Sequence record: MK482689.1
Length of the DNA stretch: 64,000 nucleotides
Strand: one strand, 5' to 3'
DNA from: Escherichia phage vB_EcoM_LMP33
Shown piece by piece: positions 14,983 through 56,992 of the stretch. A program made the translations under genes and the position numbers. Each line of letters begins with the position of its first letter. Position 1 is the first letter of the stretch. Under the pieces are notes generated by a model that worked only from the letters and a program-made list of their open reading frames with translations, did no database searches and was not told the origin of the DNA.

Positions 14983-17127
14983 ATGAACAAAGTACAGATT
15001 ATTAAAAAGAATGGCTCACTTGAAGAACCTGATATCAAAAAAGTTTTAGCAGCAGTCACAAAGTCAGCTAACAGAGTTGGTTATAAAGAGCTTCCACCAG
15101 ATGTTACTCAAGCTCTTGAGTCAGCATTTATGAGGATTCTGGTAAAGTCCACTAAGCAGAATAATTTGCTAATTTCGGTAAATGATATTCACAGTATTGT
15201 TGAGGGTGCTTTGGCAGAAGTCAATCACGAGATTTATGAGTCTTACTCAACATATAGAAATTACCGTAAAGAGGTTGCTCAAAATTGGGATGAACTCTAC
15301 CAGAAGACTAAAGATACACTCTTCTTAGGTGACCGTGAAAATGCTAACTTTGACAGCAGTTTAATTTCTACGAAAGGTTCAATTATCCGTGGTTACCTGA
15401 CTAAAGAAATCTTTAAACAGTATCATCTAACACCAGAGGAACTTGAAGCCATTGAGAAAGGCTTTATCTATATCCATGATTTAAGAGACCTGATTTTTGG
15501 TGGTATTAACTGTTGCCTGTTTGACATTGGTAAAGTACTAAAAGGTGGCTTTGAAATGTCCGGCATTGAGTACTGTGAACCTAAATCTGTACTGTCAGCG
15601 TTGCAGGTTATTGGTGACGTAGTACTTTCAGCAACTGCACAGCAATTTGGTGGTTTTACTTTAGCAGAGATTGATAAGGTACTTGTACCGTATGCTAAGA
15701 AGTCTCTACGCTATCATGCTGAGAAAGCATCATCTTATGGTATTCCTAAAGAGCATTACCACAATTATGTAATGGAGCAGTTACAAATTGAACTGACTCA
15801 AGGTTTTCAGTCACTTGAGATGAAACTAAATACCGTGCCTTGTAGCCGTGGTGATTTTGCATTCACAACTTTGACATTCGGGTTACTTGACTCAGATATG
15901 TCCAATGAAGATAACCGACTGCAATATATGATTGCAAGTACTCTCCTAGATGTTCGTATGAATGGTCAAGGTAAGAGCAAGAAACCTGTTGTATTCCCTA
16001 AACTGGTTTATATTTATGACCAGAAGAGACACAATGAGAATATCTGTCAAGGTCACCTGTACAGTAAAGCTATTGAGTGTTGCTCTAAAGCAATGTATCC
16101 AGATTTCTTAAGTGTATCTGGTCATGGTGCTGTAGCAGAGGCTTTTGAGCGTTCTGGTAAGGTAATTTCACCGATGGGTTGCAGAGCCTTCTTATCTCCG
16201 TATCTTAACGAGAATGGGGAAGAGTTCTACGTTGGTCGTGCTAACATTGGTGCTGTATCTTTGAACTTACCAATGATTTACCAGTATTCTAAAGAGAGTG
16301 GTTTAGATTTCTGGAAAGAGCTTGATAAGTACCTAGAGATGATTCGCAGCTTCCACAAGAAACGCTACGAAATGATTGCTAATATGCCAGCAAGTTCTAA
16401 CCCTCTTGCATTCACACAAGGTGGTCTGTACAAAGGGACTAAGAAACCTACTGACAAGGTTGGTTGGGATATCGTGAAGTCCTTCACAGCTTCTTTTGGG
16501 GTTACTGCTCTTGATGAGCTATCTGTTCTTGCTGAGGGTAAACGACTTCATGAAGTTGGAAGCTATAGTTTTGCATACGATGTTCTGGCGTACATCAACA
16601 TGAAAACTGAAGAGTTTAAAAATGAAGATGGCTTCTTGTATGCAGTATATGGTACTCCAGCAGAGTCATTGTGTGGAACTCAGCTAAAACAGTTCAGAGA
16701 TATGTTTGGTGTTATCAAAGGCGTTTCTGACAAGGAATACTTTACAAACAGTTTCCATATGAATGTTGCAGCAAACATCTCACCATTTGAGAAGCAGGAC
16801 TTAGAAGAACCCTTCTTCCATATCTGTAGAGGCGGTAGAATCCAGTATGTAAGAGTAGCTAACCCAGAAAACTTATCAGCACTTAAGAGCTGTATTACAA
16901 GAGGAATGTTGAAAGGTTTCTATCAGGGACTTAACTTTGACTTAGCAATCTGTGAACATTGTGGTAACAGGCCAAAGGCTGATGTTGAAGAATGTGAAGT
17001 TTGTCACTCACATGATATCTCTGTGATTAACAGGGTGTGTGGGTATCTTGGATGGACTAAGATTAAAGGTGAATCCCGAATGAACGATGCAAAAATCGCT
17101 GAGATTCGTGACAGAGTTTCTATGTAA
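14983..17127 (+). CDS. nrdD: anaerobic ribonucleoside-triphosphate reductase
   Basis: 714 aa; C-terminal zinc ribbon CEHCG...CEVCHSHD and glycyl-radical motif RVCGYLG. Confidence 0.9.
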   Translation: MNKVQIIKKNGSLEEPDIKKVLAAVTKSANRVGYKELPPDVTQALESAFMRILVKSTKQNNLLISVNDIHSIVEGALAEVNHEIYESYSTYRNYRKEVAQNWDELYQKTKDTLFLGDRENANFDSSLISTKGSIIRGYLTKEIFKQYHLTPEELEAIEKGFIYIHDLRDLIFGGINCCLFDIGKVLKGGFEMSGIEYCEPKSVLSALQVIGDVVLSATAQQFGGFTLAEIDKVLVPYAKKSLRYHAEKASSYGIPKEHYHNYVMEQLQIELTQGFQSLEMKLNTVPCSRGDFAFTTLTFGLLDSDMSNEDNRLQYMIASTLLDVRMNGQGKSKKPVVFPKLVYIYDQKRHNENICQGHLYSKAIECCSKAMYPDFLSVSGHGAVAEAFERSGKVISPMGCRAFLSPYLNENGEEFYVGRANIGAVSLNLPMIYQYSKESGLDFWKELDKYLEMIRSFHKKRYEMIANMPASSNPLAFTQGGLYKGTKKPTDKVGWDIVKSFTASFGVTALDELSVLAEGKRLHEVGSYSFAYDVLAYINMKTEEFKNEDGFLYAVYGTPAESLCGTQLKQFRDMFGVIKGVSDKEYFTNSFHMNVAANISPFEKQDLEEPFFHICRGGRIQYVRVANPENLSALKSCITRGMLKGFYQGLNFDLAICEHCGNRPKADVEECEVCHSHDISVINRVCGYLGWTKIKGESRMNDAKIAEIRDRVSM

Positions 17128-17189
17128 AACTTGACATGGTGGTGTGAGTCTTGATAGGCTTACATCACCTTTTTTATTGGATGTTAGAT

Positions 17190-17306
17190 ATGGCAGAGAG
17201 TATTATTGGGTTGTTCATAGGTTCTGTCTTACTAGGGTTCTTTTTAGGACTCTCTTATTGTGAATTGAAAGGTAAGTTAAAATGTTTAAGATATCAAAAG
17301 CGTTGA
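17190..17306 (+). CDS. small hydrophobic peptide (38 aa), hypothetical
   Basis: MAESIIGLFIGSVLLGFFLGLSYCELKGKLKCLRYQKR; single transmembrane helix; between nrdD and nrdG. Confidence 0.2.
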   Translation: MAESIIGLFIGSVLLGFFLGLSYCELKGKLKCLRYQKR

Positions 17307-17482
17307 TATACATACTCCATATTCTAGTCTTCTTCTTTGGGGTTAGTGTTATGGTATGGGGTTTTTCAGACCCACAATGGAGTTTCTCATATCATGGTCA
17401 GATGGATTTATGGTCATGCTTCAAACCATTTTTAGGGTTAGTCATAGCATTCAGTGCATTACCAACTAAGGTGAAATTATGA
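17282..17482 (+). CDS. small membrane protein (hypothetical)
   Basis: 66 aa, two predicted TM helices. Confidence 0.3.
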   Translation: MFKISKALIYILHILVFFFGVSVMVWGFSDPQWSFSYHGQMDLWSCFKPFLGLVIAFSALPTKVKL

Positions 17483-17874
17483 TTAAGTTGAGCCAAAAAC
17501 AGTTAGAGTGGATTAAAGATTATGCCTCAGAGTGTGGCTCTTGTGAAAAGAATCACGTAAGATACTCAACATTCCACACGGTCTTCACATTGTATATCGG
17601 CGACAATGTTCTAAGTGATTCTGTAGAAGATGGTGTAGCATTGCCTAATGAATTGCTTGACAAATTAGCTGTAGTCACTGGAACTTGGTCTGAAGAAGAT
17701 GGTCACGAACTATCTGATGATGTTGTCTTCTACAGTCTTGAAAACATCATGAATCCAGAGTACATTATGCTAATGACTTGCGCACAAGATTGTGTACCAT
17801 TACAAAACTTCATTAAAGAGCACTGTGAAGAATTTATTACTAAACAGGTTCCTTGTCAGGTGGTGTTTGAATGA
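17479..17874 (+). CDS. hypothetical protein (Cys-rich N-terminus)
   Basis: 131-aa ORF, coupled to neighbours. Confidence 0.35.
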   Translation: MIKLSQKQLEWIKDYASECGSCEKNHVRYSTFHTVFTLYIGDNVLSDSVEDGVALPNELLDKLAVVTGTWSEEDGHELSDDVVFYSLENIMNPEYIMLMTCAQDCVPLQNFIKEHCEEFITKQVPCQVVFE

Positions 17875-18170
17875 GTAAAACAATTCGAAGAAAAGGTTTA
17901 AAGAACGTTCATGGACTCTATGAGTGGAGAAATGAGGTACGTAACAGAGAAAATGCTTCAGATGTCTACTTCCATTCTGATATGATGTCCAGAAAAGGTG
18001 GCTCTTATGACTTTACAAGTCAACCTTGTAGGGAGATTAAGAAGGCTACTAAACGTCTTACAAGAACACAAATCAGGCAGCTTTCTAAGACATCCTTCTT
18101 AGATGAAGACTTTGACATTGATAGCAAGTCTCCAAAGAAAGCCGCTAAGAACACTTATATGTATTGGTGA
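17871..18170 (+). CDS. hypothetical basic protein
   Basis: 99-aa ORF. Confidence 0.3.
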   Translation: MSKTIRRKGLKNVHGLYEWRNEVRNRENASDVYFHSDMMSRKGGSYDFTSQPCREIKKATKRLTRTQIRQLSKTSFLDEDFDIDSKSPKKAAKNTYMYW

Positions 18171-32186: not shown

Positions 32187-32480
32187 ATGGCTATTATCAA
32201 AAACGTTGTAATTACTGCAAAGACTCGTGATGACGCTCGCGTTATGGCTAAAAAGTTATGCGGGAAAGTGGTTGACAACGGAAAACAATCTGCTGTAAGG
32301 TGGGGCGTGAAGGTTGATAAACAGTTGAAGTTAAAAAATTCACCGATAAACCTTTTTACATGTGTAAACACTATCGGGAAGACAAATGTATACACGAAAA
32401 AGGCATACATTAGACGCGTAGCATTAACATCCCCCATTCGTACAATGAGAAGTTATGCAAAGCTGAAAATTAACAAATAA
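32187..32480 (+). CDS. hypothetical basic protein (cassette ORF 2)
   Basis: 97 aa from ATG at 32187 (MAIIKN...), the start conserved within the leader repeat; track start at 32172 is a TTG. Confidence 0.45.
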   Translation: MAIIKNVVITAKTRDDARVMAKKLCGKVVDNGKQSAVRWGVKVDKQLKLKNSPINLFTCVNTIGKTNVYTKKAYIRRVALTSPIRTMRSYAKLKINK

Positions 32481-32565
32481 AGTACTTTACAGGGGGCTTA
32501 AAAGCTGATATCTTAAGCCCCAGATAAAGAGCTTTACCACTAAATCCTAAACTGGAGATTCAAAA
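32481..32565 (+). promoter_or_regulatory. type B leader element
   Basis: AGTACTTTACAGGGGGCTTAAAAGCTGATATCTTAAGCCCCAGATAAAGAGCTTTACCACTAAATCCTAAACTGGAGATTCAAAAATG. Confidence 0.5.
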
Positions 32566-34747: not shown

Positions 34748-34951
34748 ATGGCTATTATTAATGGTTTAACCATTGAAACTACACACATCAAAGATATCAA
34801 AGTTGGTGATATAGTCCTTTCCCACGGCGTAGAAAAAACTGTCACTGCAAAGGATATCAAAGAGGATTCTTTCATGGGTAGGACTCTCTTCGGTGATTCT
34901 TATTGCTTAGGCTATCTTGCAGTTTTAAAAGTTGTCAAAAATAACAAATAA
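34748..34951 (+). CDS. hypothetical small protein (cassette ORF 8)
   Basis: 67 aa (MAIINGLTIE...). Confidence 0.4.
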   Translation: MAIINGLTIETTHIKDIKVGDIVLSHGVEKTVTAKDIKEDSFMGRTLFGDSYCLGYLAVLKVVKNNK

Positions 34952-35037
34952 AGTACTTTACAAGGGGCTTAAAAGTTGATAACTTAAGCCTCAGATAAAG
35001 AGCTTTACCACTAAATCCTAAACTGGAGATTCTAAAA
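34952..35037 (+). promoter_or_regulatory. type B leader element
   Basis: AGTACTTTACAAGGGGCTTAAAAGTTGATAACTTAAGCCTCAGATAAAGAGCTTTACCACTAAATCC... Confidence 0.5.
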
Positions 35038-37797: not shown

Positions 37798-38046
37798 ATG
37801 TCAACTATCCGCGTAACTGTTAATGCTTATGGCTGCCACGAACTTGATGCAAAATTCGATATCGGTGGAACAGATAACACCTTTGACCTTATCAAAATGC
37901 TGATTCAGCAGGTGCTACCAGATTATAACCCTACCGATGACTTTTGGAAGGACGCTGTAAAAGAAGCCATAAACGAGGAATATCACTACCACTACTGGGG
38001 AGAAAAAATCGTCTCCCTATACTACAGCAAACAAGGTTACAACTAA
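37798..38046 (+). CDS. hypothetical protein (cassette ORF 15)
   Basis: 82-aa ORF; last gene before the long noncoding region. Confidence 0.4.
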   Translation: MSTIRVTVNAYGCHELDAKFDIGGTDNTFDLIKMLIQQVLPDYNPTDDFWKDAVKEAINEEYHYHYWGEKIVSLYYSKQGYN

Positions 38047-39694
38047 TCGACGCAACGGGGCTAAATAGCCCCAGATACCTGAAAAGCTCCTTCTCATAGG
38101 GGCTTTTTTACGTCTATGTAATAGCCTCTATACAACCCTTTCCCTTTCCTTCCTAGAATCTATCCCACTAATTCGATAGAATCTATCTCATACCTTAAAA
38201 AGCAATAACTCTATAGTCTACTCTATAACCTTTTATCAAATCAACTTAAATAAAAGCCAATAACCCCAGAAAGGGGATGGCCCATTTAAATGCTCTATAA
38301 AGCTCTATAACAGCCTTATCAACCTAACTTAAGGGATTGCATTAACCAACCTTAAAAAGCTCTTTACAGGGCTTTATAGAGGCTTAAAAGAATCTTATAA
38401 GGTTATAAGCTTTATTATCTCGTTAGCTATCTTGTGAATATCTAAAAAGGGCTTGTTAGTGTCTTAAAAGTATGTTATAGGGGCTATAAAGTTACTTTGA
38501 AGTTGCTTAAAAGTTACGTAAATGCTAGCCCCCTTAACATTTTCTTAACAATTTCTTAACAATCCCTACATAGTTATGCTTGTTAGCAACTTGTTAGCCC
38601 CTTGTTAAATCTCTGTTAAGACAACGTAAAAGCCTTGTAAGAACCTTTGACATAGCCTTTAAAGCCCCTGTAAAGCCTTATAAAGAGGTATCTGTACAGT
38701 TGGGGTGTAATTACTAGGAAGAGGCTTAAAAGAGCTTATAAAGAGCTATAGAGAGCTTTTAAGAGGTATGTTTAGAGAATCACTAAGAGGGAAAGGGAAC
38801 GATAAGAAAAGAGTAGTGACCATGTTAATAGCTTGTTAAAAAGATTAAACACTTGTTAGAAACTTGTTAATTATCTTAACAAAATAACTCTTAAAAATTA
38901 ACTTGTTAGCTCTTGTTAGTCATCTGTTAAGATTCTGTAAAGCCTATGTATCAACTGTTAAGAACTTGTTACAACCTTGTTAGTTCTGTTAAGAATCTGT
39001 TAAGACCTCTGAAGAGATGTTAAGAACTTGAGAGAGTTGTTAAGGAATTGTTAATGATATTTAAAATTTTGCAAAGTACTTGTAAGGGAGTTGTTAAGGG
39101 CTACCAAGCAGATATACATCTTCTACAGATATTTTTCAGTTCCTTCAAAGACCCTAAAAAATGACTTGATAGTCCTATTTTATAAAAATTTTAAGATTCT
39201 GAATAATTACCTATACAGCCTTTCTAAAATACAGGTAATAACAGGCTTATAAGATACCTTGTTAGTACCGTGTTAGACCTTGTGAGATAAGGTCTGTGAA
39301 GATATTCCTGTTAAGTTTGTTAAAACAGTCTATATAGAGGCTTAGTAATACCTAGTGAACACCTATAGAGAGTGTCATAGCTAACCTAGAGATTAAGAGG
39401 TGTATAGGAGCTTCTAAGAGGGTATAGAGAGGTGGTTAAGGTGATTGTATAGGTTGTTAAGAAGGCTTGTTAGAGGGCTTGTTAGAAGGGTTATACAGAG
39501 GGCTATTAAGACCACTAGATAGATACTAAGATACTATATAGTACTATATAACTATATATAGAGAGTAAGCTTAAGAAGGTTGTTAAGAAGGGTAGATATT
39601 TTGTTCACATATGATGGTGACCCAGAGGTTGGGACAACCGATAAAATTTTATAAAAATTAAAAAGCCCCCAATTAAGGAGGCTCTTAAGATATT
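38047..39694. repeat. about 1.65-kb ORF-free region dense in short degenerate repeats ((C)TTGTTA(G/A), CTGTTAAG, TATAAAG, CTTAAAAG; tandem TTCTTAACAA x2 near 38543-38564)
   Basis: No ORF of 60 aa or more on either strand; dozens of TTGTTA(A/G)-type motifs; lies between convergent plus and minus gene clusters. Confidence 0.7.
39661..39686 (-). terminator. intrinsic terminator for minus-strand cluster
   Basis: On minus strand: AGCCTCC..GGGGGCT hairpin + TTTT just downstream of the stop at 39695. Confidence 0.45.
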
Positions 39695-40288
39695 TTAAAT
39701 CAGTGTTTCCAGAACTGTCTTCAGTGATGACTTGGTTGTCTGATAAAAATGAGTAAATCCATTGTTGTTATCGAATACCTGCATCATGATATCATCTCCC
39801 TTGATTGGGTACACTCGGATATCATAGTGAAAACCATTAAAGACACAAGAACCACTACAGAATGCTCTAAAGTCATCCACTGAGATATACTCTTCGTGAC
39901 CTGTGATTTTTATACAAACACCTTTACTCGGTCTCTTAGGGTTGATATCTTCCATCACAGACATACTCTGTCCACCAAGAGATACCATAGTGACCACTTT
40001 ACGGTTCTTCTGTCTAAAGTACATCTTAACTTTCTGCAAAGTATCTTCATAGAACGGATAAGACCTTTCTACAAAGATTCCTTCAAGCGGCTCTTTACCA
40101 TTTTCAACTTCTCTGTTATGCCGTACTGCAAAGATAATTTGTTCGAACCAGTCAAGATTTTCTTCGGAGAGTGCTTCCCGAATATCACTCCAGTCAAGGA
40201 CTAGATAGTTACCTTCAACTTCTTTTAAGTTATCTTTTCCCATAGTTATCACACCATTATCGTAAAACTTGGTAAGCTGGAACTGCAA
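39695..40288 (-). CDS. hypothetical protein
   Basis: 197-aa ORF, last gene of minus-strand cluster. Confidence 0.45.
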   Translation of the reverse strand: MQFQLTKFYDNGVITMGKDNLKEVEGNYLVLDWSDIREALSEENLDWFEQIIFAVRHNREVENGKEPLEGIFVERSYPFYEDTLQKVKMYFRQKNRKVVTMVSLGGQSMSVMEDINPKRPSKGVCIKITGHEEYISVDDFRAFCSGSCVFNGFHYDIRVYPIKGDDIMMQVFDNNNGFTHFYQTTKSSLKTVLETLI

Positions 40289-47609: not shown

Positions 47610-47686
47610 GGCAGACCTACAGCTTAAGTAAGATGGTACAGTAATCCATACAACAAGTCAAGAACTATTGCAAGTTAAAAAAGTTG

Positions 47687-47710
47687 TTGACAAAGTACTT
47701 GACAAGGTGT
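47687..47710. promoter_or_regulatory. conserved 24-bp dual-TTGACA motif (TTGACAAAGTACTTGACAAGGTGT), copy 2
   Basis: In the divergent intergenic region between the minus-strand cluster start and 47837; 23/24 identity with copy 1. Confidence 0.5.
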
Positions 47711-55168: not shown

Positions 55169-55369
55169 ATGAGCGAGACCGTTTATAAAGAACTTTATGA
55201 AGCTAATAAGAAGCTAGAATTTATGCAGAACACTATCATGGCAATTGCAGACAGATTATCTGTAGCAACAGGTATTGATATTAAAGAAGCATCTATGGAT
55301 GCACTTCTTGATGCTGTTGATGCAAAGTTCGAAGTTAAGAAAGAAGAGACTGCTACAGACTCTGAATAA
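55169..55369 (+). CDS. hypothetical small protein (possible small terminase subunit by position)
   Basis: 66-aa acidic helical ORF directly upstream of the large terminase; positional inference only. Confidence 0.25.
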   Translation: MSETVYKELYEANKKLEFMQNTIMAIADRLSVATGIDIKEASMDALLDAVDAKFEVKKEETATDSE

Positions 55370-55375
55370 TTCTAT

Positions 55376-56992
55376 TTGCGGAGGTGCTTAATGGACTTAA
55401 ATGCTGTTAAGCAGAAGCGAGTGGAAGATGTTAGGAAAGTCCTAGCTGGAGAGTTGGGGCTTTCTGATGAAGTAAAAGAAATTATCAAATCATTCGGTAA
55501 AGACCCCTCTAAATTCCTTCCAACTCAAATTCTGACTTTATTAAGATACACACCAGACCAAGTTAGACTTATCTTCAAATTGATGACTGATAAGAACTAT
55601 GTAGCCCCTCAGCCGGGTTCTCAAGAGGTCTTTTTAAATACTAATGCTGACTTGGTTCTCTATGGTGGTGCTGCGGGTGCTGGTAAGACTGCTGCATTGT
55701 TAATGGACTCTTTAAGGTTTATTGACGACCCTAATTATAACGCTGTATATTTCCGTCGAAATACAACACAGTTACAAGGTGGTTTGTGGCCTGCTGCAAA
55801 GAAACTATTTGGTAAGTTTGGTGGGGTTCCTCACGAGCAGAAGATGACTATCACATTCCCTTCTGGGGCAACTATCAAGTTTACCTATCTAGAACTTGAA
55901 AAGCACGCTGAAGGTCATCAGGGTATTGAATACTCAGCTATTTACTTTGACGAAGGTACACACTTCTCTGCTTCACAGATTTCATACCTACAAACCCGTC
56001 TACGTTCTGGTGCTGAAGGTGATTCATACATGAAGATTTCCATGAACCCAGACAGAGACCACTTTATTTACGATTGGGTAGAGCCATTCTTAGATGAAGA
56101 AGGCTATCCAGACCCTGAAAAATGTGGTCGTATTCGTTGGTATGTAATGAACGATGGTGTGATGGTTTCTGATTGGGAGAGAGACAAGATTCTTGAAATG
56201 TTCCCTCTTGAGATTCCTCAAACATACACCTTTATCTCTGGTACGATTGATGATAACCCAATCCTTGACTTCTTAGAGCCTAAGTACCGTGGTAAGTTGG
56301 AAAACAACACCCCTGTAAACGTTGCAAGACTTCGTTTCGGTAACTGGAAGGCTCGTGCAGAAGGTTCAAACTATTGGCAAAGGCAATGGTGTGAGATTGT
56401 TGATTCACTCCCAGAAGATGTATTTGATGTTAGAGCATGGGACTTAGCAGCAACTTTACCATCTGAGATTAACCCTAATCCAGACTGGACAGCAGGTGTT
56501 AAGATGGGTAAATCTAAAAAAGACGGTTGCTATTATATCATTGATGTAGTAAGATTTAGAGATAGACCCTCTGGAGTCGAAACACAAATTAATTTGACTG
56601 CTGAAAGTGACGGTAAGCGAACTGGTATTTTTATCCCTCAAGACCCAGGCGCTGCTGGTAAATCCTACGCAACATCCCTCATCAGGAAACTTGCCGAGAA
56701 AGGTTATCGAGCAAGAGCCAAACCAACAAATAAAGATAAAGTTACCCGCTTTGCGGGATTTTCTGCTGCTTCTGAAGCTGGACTTGTAAAAGTCTTGAGA
56801 GGTAGTTGGAATGAAGCTTACTTTCAAGAACTTGAAGGTTTTTGTGGTGACGGCAAAACTAAAGATGACCAAGTGGATGCTACCAGTGATGCTTTCAACA
56901 GTCTTAACGAAGTTAAATTATTCAAGCCACCATCAATGGGTGCTCACACAGACTTAGTGAGAGGAAACCCATATGAGGGGCTTAGACGTTGA
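55376..56992 (+). CDS. terminase large subunit
   Basis: Walker A LVLYGGAAGAGKTAALL; Walker B-like AIYFDEGTH; C-terminal nuclease-like acidic motifs; size and position before portal. Confidence 0.8.
   Translation: MRRCLMDLNAVKQKRVEDVRKVLAGELGLSDEVKEIIKSFGKDPSKFLPTQILTLLRYTPDQVRLIFKLMTDKNYVAPQPGSQEVFLNTNADLVLYGGAAGAGKTAALLMDSLRFIDDPNYNAVYFRRNTTQLQGGLWPAAKKLFGKFGGVPHEQKMTITFPSGATIKFTYLELEKHAEGHQGIEYSAIYFDEGTHFSASQISYLQTRLRSGAEGDSYMKISMNPDRDHFIYDWVEPFLDEEGYPDPEKCGRIRWYVMNDGVMVSDWERDKILEMFPLEIPQTYTFISGTIDDNPILDFLEPKYRGKLENNTPVNVARLRFGNWKARAEGSNYWQRQWCEIVDSLPEDVFDVRAWDLAATLPSEINPNPDWTAGVKMGKSKKDGCYYIIDVVRFRDRPSGVETQINLTAESDGKRTGIFIPQDPGAAGKSYATSLIRKLAEKGYRARAKPTNKDKVTRFAGFSAASEAGLVKVLRGSWNEAYFQELEGFCGDGKTKDDQVDATSDAFNSLNEVKLFKPPSMGAHTDLVRGNPYEGLRR

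Follow-up and report, generated by a model that had tools for sequence, protein, structure and literature searches.

Results

Gene Context of the Non-Coding Region

The DNA analyzed here is a 64,000-nucleotide stretch of Escherichia phage vB_EcoM_LMP33 (MK482689.1), referred to below as the window, and the subject is the non-coding region at positions 38047–39694, where a + strand and a − strand gene cluster converge and where, judging from homologous phages, the ends of the phage chromosome are located. The region is an exact intergenic gap: an open reading frame (ORF) on the + strand stops at 38046, and an ORF on the − strand stops at 39695. The segment 38100–39047 does not contain any ORF of at least 30 aa, and the rest of the region contains only three small ORFs (33–53 aa). 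A Rho-independent terminator (GCTCCTTCTCATAGGGGCTTTTTT, 38083–38110, + strand), with a second hairpin ahead of it at approximately 38054–38073, ends the + strand cluster, and another Rho-independent terminator, found in a terminator scan at 39661–39686 (− strand), ends the − strand cluster; both are annotated in phages AYO145A and Moogle, the former at the homologous place. These terminators shield the gene-free 1.65-kb zone from both of the convergent transcription units. The GC content is 34% over the region, and it is 27.6% in an AT-rich segment at 39106–39250.

The sequence of the region shows 100% identity to those of Escherichia phages vB_EcoM_LMP34 and LMP25, and homologous regions with 74–95% identity are present in 255 records of Felix O1-like myophages (Felixounavirus, Suspvirus, and Mooglevirus), 192 of which cover at least 80% of it. 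By sequence homology, the source phage is Felix O1-like (Felixounavirus). The gene map of the window agrees with this assignment, as it includes 25 tRNA genes, a large terminase, a Mu-like portal, a major capsid protein, and both aerobic and anaerobic ribonucleotide reductases. In ten non-coding regions (NCRs) delimited by the flanking genes, both the length (1.59–1.74 kb) and the number of + strand copies of the motif TGTTA (22–31) are conserved; the NCR of KMM4, which is cut at the end of its record and was measured as 2.05 kb, is kept apart from these ten.

Position of the Chromosome Ends

The chromosome ends of several relatives have been mapped, and they fall in this region. The record of phage Pr103Blw, which opens inside the region, has a PhageTerm-determined "short direct terminal repeat" of 581 bp annotated at each end; the two copies are identical and map to window positions 38528–39105. 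The record of phage UAB_69 has an annotated direct terminal repeat (DTR) of 618 bp, which maps to window positions 38526–39107 and whose sequence is 100% identical in UAB_Phi87, a phage from the same laboratory, which mapped its ends with Bal31 digestion and run-off sequencing. A single SpeI fragment of UAB_Phi87 spans the site, where 6568 bp plus the DTR gives a terminal total of 7186 bp, and the reported Bal31-sensitive SpeI fragments of 4322 and 2819 bp give 7141 bp; the SpeI map thus roughly fits ends in this region.

Two other records break at these positions, NBEco005 starting at 38528 and pEP20 at 39105, and a third, NJ12, ends close to 39114, which is past the right boundary by about 9 bp. 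The record of Erwinia phage M7, which belongs to a distant genus (Kolesnikvirus), begins with TTAGCCACTTTTACATTTCGTTAACA and has a perfect 444-bp repeat at both ends (100% identical), the boundaries of which align with those of Pr103Blw and UAB_69. A "T7-like" DTR of 439 bp has been reported for Hafnia phage SPARTY. The published DTRs are accordingly 581–618 bp in Felix O1-like phages (UAB_Phi87, UAB_69, and Pr103Blw) and 439–444 bp in Kolesnikvirus, and the PhageTerm class of these phages is "DTR, T7-like".

Since the mapped ends of the relatives fall here, the whole non-coding region at 38047–39694, as delimited by the ORF list and by homology, is taken to be the terminal-repeat region, i.e., the concatemer junction, in collapsed form. 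By homology with the close relatives, the DTR is placed at approximately 38526/8–39105/7 of the window (about 580 bp), and the ends of the chromosome are predicted to be fixed and non-permuted.

A position 14 kb away, in the tRNA cluster, was first inferred for the termini from a 542-bp overlap of the ends of the UAB_Phi87 record, and it was rejected because the UAB_69 DTR, identical in UAB_Phi87, and the SpeI map place the ends in the non-coding region. In the UAB_Phi87 record (JN225449), the ends overlap by 542 bp inside the tRNA cluster, at positions corresponding to 53253–53794 of the window. The published 608-bp terminal repeat is actually located at record positions 15150–15767, and the overlap, an assembly artefact, can be confused with it.

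Structure of the Terminal Repeat and Its Boundaries

The DTR at 38526–39107, as defined by the DTRs of Pr103Blw and UAB_69, is present as one copy in the circularly collapsed sequence and would be duplicated at both ends of the virion DNA. Its left boundary at 38526–38562 (− strand), TAGCCCCCTTAACAttttCTTAACAatttCTTAACAA, consists of three TGTTAAG units and is the putative left cut site, in line with the record starts of Pr103Blw, NBEco005, and M7; its sequence is conserved in four genera. The right boundary at 39069–39107 (+ strand) ends with CTTGTAAGGGAGTTGTTAAGGGCTACCAA and is an inverted copy of the left boundary motif (inverted repeat I4), with which the DTR ends of Pr103Blw and UAB_69 and the record break of pEP20 agree. 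When both ends are read inward, the left one starts with TAGCCCCCTTAACAttttCTTAACAatttCTTAACAA and the right one with TTGGTAGCCCTTAACAactcCCTTACAA. Each boundary is therefore an inverted copy of the other, with the shared motif TAGCCC(CC)TTAACA, which itself contains a TGTTAA unit. TGTTAAG units lie against both boundaries, in inverted orientation, and occupy the DNA between them.

Directly outside the right boundary, comparison of genomes shows the sequence GCAGATATACA (39108–39118, + strand), the last ten bases of which, CAGATATACA, are identical in all 12 genomes compared, including that of Erwinia phage phiEa21-4; M7 has GTAGATATACA at this place. Together with the two boundaries, GCAGATATACA is conserved in the four genera.

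Enrichment and Helical Phasing of the TGTTA Repeats

The region contains 36 TGTTA cores, 30 of which are on the + strand and six on the − strand. The + strand expectation from 1000 dinucleotide-preserving shuffles is 3.1 ± 1.7, with a maximum of 11, and the longer words are also enriched against the shuffles (14 vs 0.26 for CTTGTTA and 25 vs 1.1 for YTGTTAR). The density of TGTTA reaches 18 and 13 per kb in the region, vs 0–4 per kb per strand elsewhere in the window, and CTTGTTA occurs only 11 times, counting both strands together, in the other 62 kb. Two thirds of the cores (24 of 36) lie inside the DTR of about 580 bp, and the remainder lie outside it.

The spacing of the cores is regular as well as dense. 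Exactly 11 bp separates 11 of the 29 successive TGTTA pairs, where the null expectation is 0.6 and none of 20,000 random placements reached 11. The pairwise distances pile up at 11, 20–22, 31, 42, 51–53, and 60–63 bp, and the phasing coherence has its peak at 10.25–10.5 bp, which corresponds to the helical repeat. This accumulation of distances near multiples of the helical repeat indicates that the TGTTA units are arranged on one face of the helix.

Within the DTR, the + strand TGTTA(A/G) units at 11-bp spacing extend from 38581 to 39054 and form five clusters, located at 38581–38618 (four units), 38823–38869 (four), 38904–38929 (three), 38956–39002 (five), and 39018–39053 (three). The arrangement TGTTA-N6-TGTTA occurs 13 times in the region. 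The right flank (39255–39600, + strand) has four more small TGTTA clusters, in which pairs or triplets are found at 39260/39271, 39309/39318, 39455–39480, and 39581, along with TATAGAG units, and an AT-rich tandem repeat with a period of about 8 is located at 39519–39560. The left flank (38111–38525, no strand assigned) is occupied by 10–11-bp units of a second motif class, namely CTCTATAA, CTTAAAAG, CTTATAAG, and AGTTAC/AGTTGC (repeat families D2, D8, D9, and D15, and TRF rows). This second and looser class of 10–11-bp units extends across both flanks in the forms CTTAAAAG, CTTATAAG, CTATAAAG, and TATAGAG, and the pattern CT..WWAR occurs 60 times on the + strand, vs 13.3 expected.

These results bear on the initial annotation, which was made from the sequence and which had described an ORF-free 1.65-kb gap between convergent gene clusters, saturated with a short motif and accompanied by AT-rich tandem repeats. 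The gap is confirmed by the exact intergenic coordinates and the short ORFs, the convergence by the genes and their terminators, the saturation by the shuffles, and the tandem repeats by the array at 39519–39560. The leading role that it had proposed, a physical genome terminus or concatemer junction, agrees with the ends mapped in Pr103Blw, UAB_69/UAB_Phi87, and M7: the termini, as located through relatives, lie in this region rather than elsewhere, and the motif density is far above that of the shuffled sequence.

Conservation of the Region

In relatives from three genera, the conservation of the DTR and the right flank generally equals or exceeds that of the adjacent protein-coding genes. 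In the comparison with Felix O1, the DTR is 87.8% and the right flank 95.3% identical, and the identities of the two flanking genes are 71.6% and 90.0%. The right flank is 73–97% identical among the relatives and is usually at least as conserved as the neighboring genes. Inside the DTR, the TGTTA cores are 95.7% conserved vs 82.4% for the non-core positions in nine relatives, a difference to be read with the fact that alignments of repeats favor matching cores.

In the Erwinia phages, the surroundings have diverged beyond nucleotide alignment, yet the phased CTGTTAAG/TTGTTAAG arrays and the boundary words persist. The syntenic non-coding region of phiEa21-4 (16472–17912) keeps both the TGTTAAG arrays and the boundary words, and its left flank uses TTCTAAG instead, with at least 14 copies at 10–11-bp spacing, a difference suggesting that the co-evolution of the flank motif is separate from that of the DTR motif. 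The region is real and functional.

A Candidate Small Terminase

The enzyme expected to cut the DTR boundaries is the large terminase (TerL), encoded at 55376–56992 on the + strand (Terminase_6N, Terminase_6C, phrog_979). In the Felix O1 genome paper, only TerL was found and no small terminase (TerS), and a TerS near TerL is annotated in none of 291 records. When the 90 ORFs of the window were scanned against Pfam, a 123-aa DUF5681 protein encoded at 47837–48205 (+ strand; PF18932, E = 2e-14) was obtained as the candidate TerS. It has an invariant basic N-terminal arm, FKKGQSGNPxGRPKGSRNK, which is followed by long helices. Its gene is the first of an operon that runs through the tRNA cluster to TerL, from which it is separated by a Ro60-like gene and the tRNA cluster, and gp42 of phiEa21-4 matches it in size and in position, just before the tRNA cluster.

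In two unrelated contigs, a DUF5681 gene is located directly upstream of, and overlaps, a Terminase_6N/Terminase_3/Terminase_3C gene. In two further unrelated contigs, it abuts an ORF of 470–624 aa in the TerL position, after a ParB-methylase gene; one of these ORFs has an MJ0330_N match, and the other has no Pfam match. From this synteny, DUF5681 would be a small-terminase family, and its member in this phage the TerS that is "missing" in Felix O1-like phages; the protein is proposed as the TerS that may read the arrays. The DUF5681 contigs with a Pfam-identified TerL are metagenomic or prophage sequences.

A TerS immediately next to TerL was also sought and rejected, as neither the 66-aa ORF upstream of TerL nor a 265-aa DUF7217 protein gave a functional match. 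The 66-aa ORF (55169–55369, + strand; phrog_4397, a family of unknown function) encodes an acidic helical protein, with 7 bp between its end and the start of TerL, and could also be a packaging accessory protein, as the second and weaker of the candidates.

Discussion

Proposed Packaging Model

The region is interpreted as the genome-end and packaging region of the phage, in which the phased TGTTA arrays would be read by a packaging-initiation protein, with DUF5681 as the candidate, and TerL would cut at the boundaries; the probability of this model as a whole is estimated to be roughly 0.6. The most likely function of the TGTTAAG motifs, as far as their sequence and arrangement indicate, is to guide the DNA-packaging enzyme. 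An array of binding sites for a DNA-binding protein, which the initial annotation had listed among the possible roles, is very plausible because the units are helically phased and their cores show extra conservation.

In the proposed model, the two DTR copies of the virion DNA are collapsed into one in the present sequence, as they would be in a replicative concatemer. The approximately 36 TGTTA(A/G) units on one helix face would be bound cooperatively by an oligomeric packaging-initiation protein, around which the DNA would wrap. The phased arrays would thereby assemble the terminase complex, and the wrapped complex would position TerL at the boundaries. Helically phased direct repeats would suit an oligomeric DNA-wrapping protein, and small terminases are such proteins. 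Since each boundary is an inverted copy of the other, the terminase should engage each of them in the opposite orientation and nick opposite strands. These nicks, approximately 580 bp apart, would lie at the two symmetric boundaries of a T7-type concatemer junction, and strand-displacement synthesis across the 580 bp would then duplicate the repeat, such that each daughter would obtain a full copy, as in the classical scheme proposed for T7-type DTR phages.

Several points weigh against this model. The assignment of the ends in the source phage is drawn from relatives that are 87–90% identical, and the sizes of the SpeI fragments agree only to within 45–115 bp. About a third of the TGTTA units and the entire second motif class lie outside the DTR, which a pure cut-site role does not explain. 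With respect to the reader of the arrays, the candidate TerS gene is 7 kb from TerL in this phage, and synteny is the one line of evidence that connects DUF5681 with TerS. The AlphaFold model of the DUF5681 protein is poor (pLDDT 66, pTM 0.36), with a confidence too low for a fold search, and the PDB sequence search, NCBIfam, and the source names gave no support for DUF5681 as TerS.

With this assignment, the true chromosome ends can be located in a group of therapeutic and biocontrol phages that has been sequenced very widely, with more than 250 records, most of which were opened arbitrarily and in which the region was left unannotated or called "hypothetical protein". In Ounavirinae, a helically phased TGTTAAG array between inverted cut sites appears to serve as the cis-acting packaging signal, and DUF5681 provides a concrete candidate for the small terminase reported missing in the Felix O1 genome paper.

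Possible Binding of Host ArcA

The TGTTA arrays could instead be sites of the host regulator ArcA-P (OmpR/PhoB family), which the DTR would recruit or titrate. Through ArcA-P at the DTR, the protection of the ends, packaging or replication, or the expression of host respiratory genes would then be tied to anaerobiosis in the gut host. Both proposals are considered improbable, despite a close resemblance at the sequence level. The published ArcA site consists of direct repeats with a TGTTA core at 11 bp centre-to-centre, with 2–5 repeats per site and extra repeats at 11 or 22 bp (PMC3798270, PMC4173790), and the architecture of the present arrays, TGTTA direct repeats at 11-bp spacing, matches it.

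A position weight matrix (PWM) was built from the 115 ArcA boxes in Park et al. Table S3, for which the site threshold is approximately 9–10 bits. The region contains 13 boxes of at least 12 bits and seven of at least 15 bits, and the latter are seven of the nine such boxes in the whole 64-kb window. The top scores of 22.7, 22.5, and 21.1 bits match or exceed that of the best E. coli training site (21.5 bits), and the two best scores of the window, 22.7 and 22.5 bits, are located in the left DTR boundary (38526–38562). Simple consensus patterns for PmrA, PhoP, CpxR, and PhoB have no match in the region. The known hosts of the subfamily are all Enterobacterales, and the phage encodes an anaerobic ribonucleotide reductase (NrdD with an activase domain). 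ArcA-P would probably bind such DNA.

A number of observations speak against ArcA as the intended reader of the arrays. The ArcA match was noticed after the motif had been seen, so it is not an independent test, and any reader of TGTTAA direct repeats would score alike. That the motif belongs to the conserved, inverted boundaries of the cut sites points to packaging machinery of the phage itself. The units beside the arrays drift to CTTAAAAG-type words and not to variants tolerated by ArcA; a check of the degenerate units in phase with TGTTA for ArcA-tolerated substitutions, which found a drift to T/A-rich words, was uninformative. The region lies between two terminators and has no promoter for ArcA to control, as sigma-70-like matches are at chance level. 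In a scan of IMG/VR for three phased TGTTAA units, many single matches were obtained with no sign of a motif common to unrelated enteric phages, and the dense arrays among them came only from contigs whose length suggests Ounavirinae, and not from other viral contigs. No link between ArcA and Felix O1-like phages was found in the papers searched, and such phages are routinely grown in ordinary laboratory culture.

It is therefore doubtful that the DTR is a high-density platform of approximately 36 consensus-grade ArcA-P repeats that is used or titrated at the phage chromosome ends. If it were, ArcA-P could gate packaging or replication, protect the ends under anaerobiosis, or be absorbed by a sponge that derepresses host respiratory metabolism after genome amplification. 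This would be a new kind of phage–host coupling, with arrays that are indistinguishable by sequence from strong ArcA-P sites.

Other Alternative Explanations

The initial annotation had also raised a replication-origin site, and this role did not gain support. It would require that the region is or contains an origin, in which the repeats are iterons for a phage initiator and the AT block at 39106–39250 is the unwinding element. The region is indeed non-coding, repeat-rich, AT-rich, and strongly conserved, and the cumulative GC skew turns in it. However, the turn of the skew is explained by the switch in gene orientation at this place, and a pattern search did not find DnaA boxes or IHF consensus sites in the region, nor did the Chi pattern have any match there. 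An initiator-like gene was not recognized next to the repeats, where the five closest genes on either side have hits only to PHROG families of unknown function and lack Pfam domains. The units are 7–8 bp long at a spacing of one helical turn, in contrast to iterons of 17–22 bp, and the function to which this DNA has been mapped in relatives is that of the chromosome end. An origin is thus regarded as a minor possibility.

Little weight is given to the explanation that, besides the two cut sites, the repeats have no sequence-specific reader and represent a decayed tandem array or a bent, stiff spacer. It is just as doubtful that such a spacer is merely tolerated in DNA that cannot encode genes since it is duplicated at the ends. 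The arrays are indeed degenerate, with other 10–11-bp units mixed in, and slippage easily creates short repeats. Against this, the TGTTA cores are more conserved than the neighboring bases, they are kept in a genus whose surroundings have diverged beyond nucleotide alignment, and both the strict strand bias (30 vs 6) and a helical phase kept over 60 bp are observed. A decayed repeat without a reader is unlikely.

Two further identities of the region were rejected: a known RNA family, as the Rfam E-value search of the region gave no accepted match but only a sub-threshold one on the terminator (26 bits vs a gathering score of 55), and a promoter array, as the sigma-70-like matches are as frequent as expected by chance (8 vs 7.0 ± 3.0) and CTTGTTA does not serve as a general phage promoter word, given that the rest of the window is not enriched in it.

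Other Features of the Window

Two ribonucleotide reductases are encoded in the + strand cluster at 2000–38000, one aerobic (class I) and one anaerobic (NrdD, with a 4Fe-4S activase domain), and the presence of both fits growth in anaerobic gut hosts.

Two divergent intergenic regions at approximately 1846–1870 and 47686–47710 have nearly identical tandem −35-like boxes (GTTGACA..GTACTTGACAAGGTG), and both sets of boxes are followed by phased CTTAAAAG/CTTATAAG units, which resemble the units in the flanks of the non-coding region. These two sites are probably strong early promoters and possibly share a regulator site.

Two copies of an intergenic element of approximately 57 bp, CTTTACA(G/A)GGGGCTTAAAAG...CTTAAGCC(C/T)CAGATAAAGAGCTTTACCACTAAATCCTA, are located at approximately 32450–32545 and 34920–35015. 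The element folds as a GGGGCTTAA/TTAAGCCCC hairpin and is the same as a direct repeat noted in the Felix O1 genome paper; it is probably a terminator or a processing site.

The sequence GATC does not occur in the whole 64 kb (1–64000), where about 224 copies are expected from the base composition. Many 6-bp palindromes are likewise absent from the 64 kb (ATGCAT, 0 vs 21 expected; AGATCT, 0 vs 21), and CCGG and CGCG are present at 0.2 of the expectation. This depletion looks like an extreme avoidance of restriction or Dam sites.

Comparison with Known Systems

A T7-type short-DTR junction is already documented for a few Felix O1-like phages. No earlier description was found of the phased TGTTAAG arrays, of the inverted boundary motif, or of DUF5681 as a TerS candidate, and the main text of the PhageMaP study of Felixounavirus Bas63 reports nothing on this intergenic region.

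Phage T5 has an "injection stop signal" region that lies inside its 10-kb repeat and contains DnaA boxes and palindromes. The region analyzed here resembles it in being a long non-coding, repeat-rich stretch that is tied to the terminal repeat of a virulent enterobacterial phage. Unlike in T5, these elements are absent from the region, and Felix O1-like phages are not known to inject their DNA in two steps.

The arrays share with the ArcA-P sites of E. coli (Park et al. 2013, Park and Kiley 2014) the TGTTA core, the direct repeats, the 11-bp spacing, and the multi-repeat organization. The chromosomal sites, however, have 2–5 repeats and lie over promoters, whereas the units in the phage region are predicted from sequence, number in the dozens, and do not accompany a promoter.

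Clusters of a repeated short word to either side of the cleavage positions are also seen at the packaging sites of P1 (pac), lambda (cosB), and SPP1. Terminase sites built from repeated motifs include the hexamer clusters that flank the cut in P1 pac, the R sites of lambda cosB, and the pacL and pacR boxes of SPP1, and in these phages an oligomeric small terminase reads the repeats and bends or wraps the DNA. The present region differs from them in having far more copies, about 36 over 1.2 kb, as putative sites known from sequence, and in having two cut sites that lead to a DTR, vs a single pac or cos cut.

The region can also be compared with the chromosome ends of T7, T3, and SP6. As in these phages, the ends appear to be fixed and non-permuted, and an identical non-coding repeat of a few hundred bp would be present at each end, with one copy per concatemer junction. 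As in T7, arrays of short imperfect repeats adjoin the terminal repeat; those of T7 are the heptamer arrays SRL and SRR, reportedly described by Dunn and Studier in 1983. In contrast to T7, the repeat is 3–4 times longer and is located in a much larger gene-free zone of 1.65 kb, the genes on both sides point toward the ends, and TerL is of a different lineage (Terminase_6N, with a T4/Mu-like neighborhood). Unlike those of T7, the arrays extend through the repeat itself in helical phase, and the inverted boundary motif has the same core.

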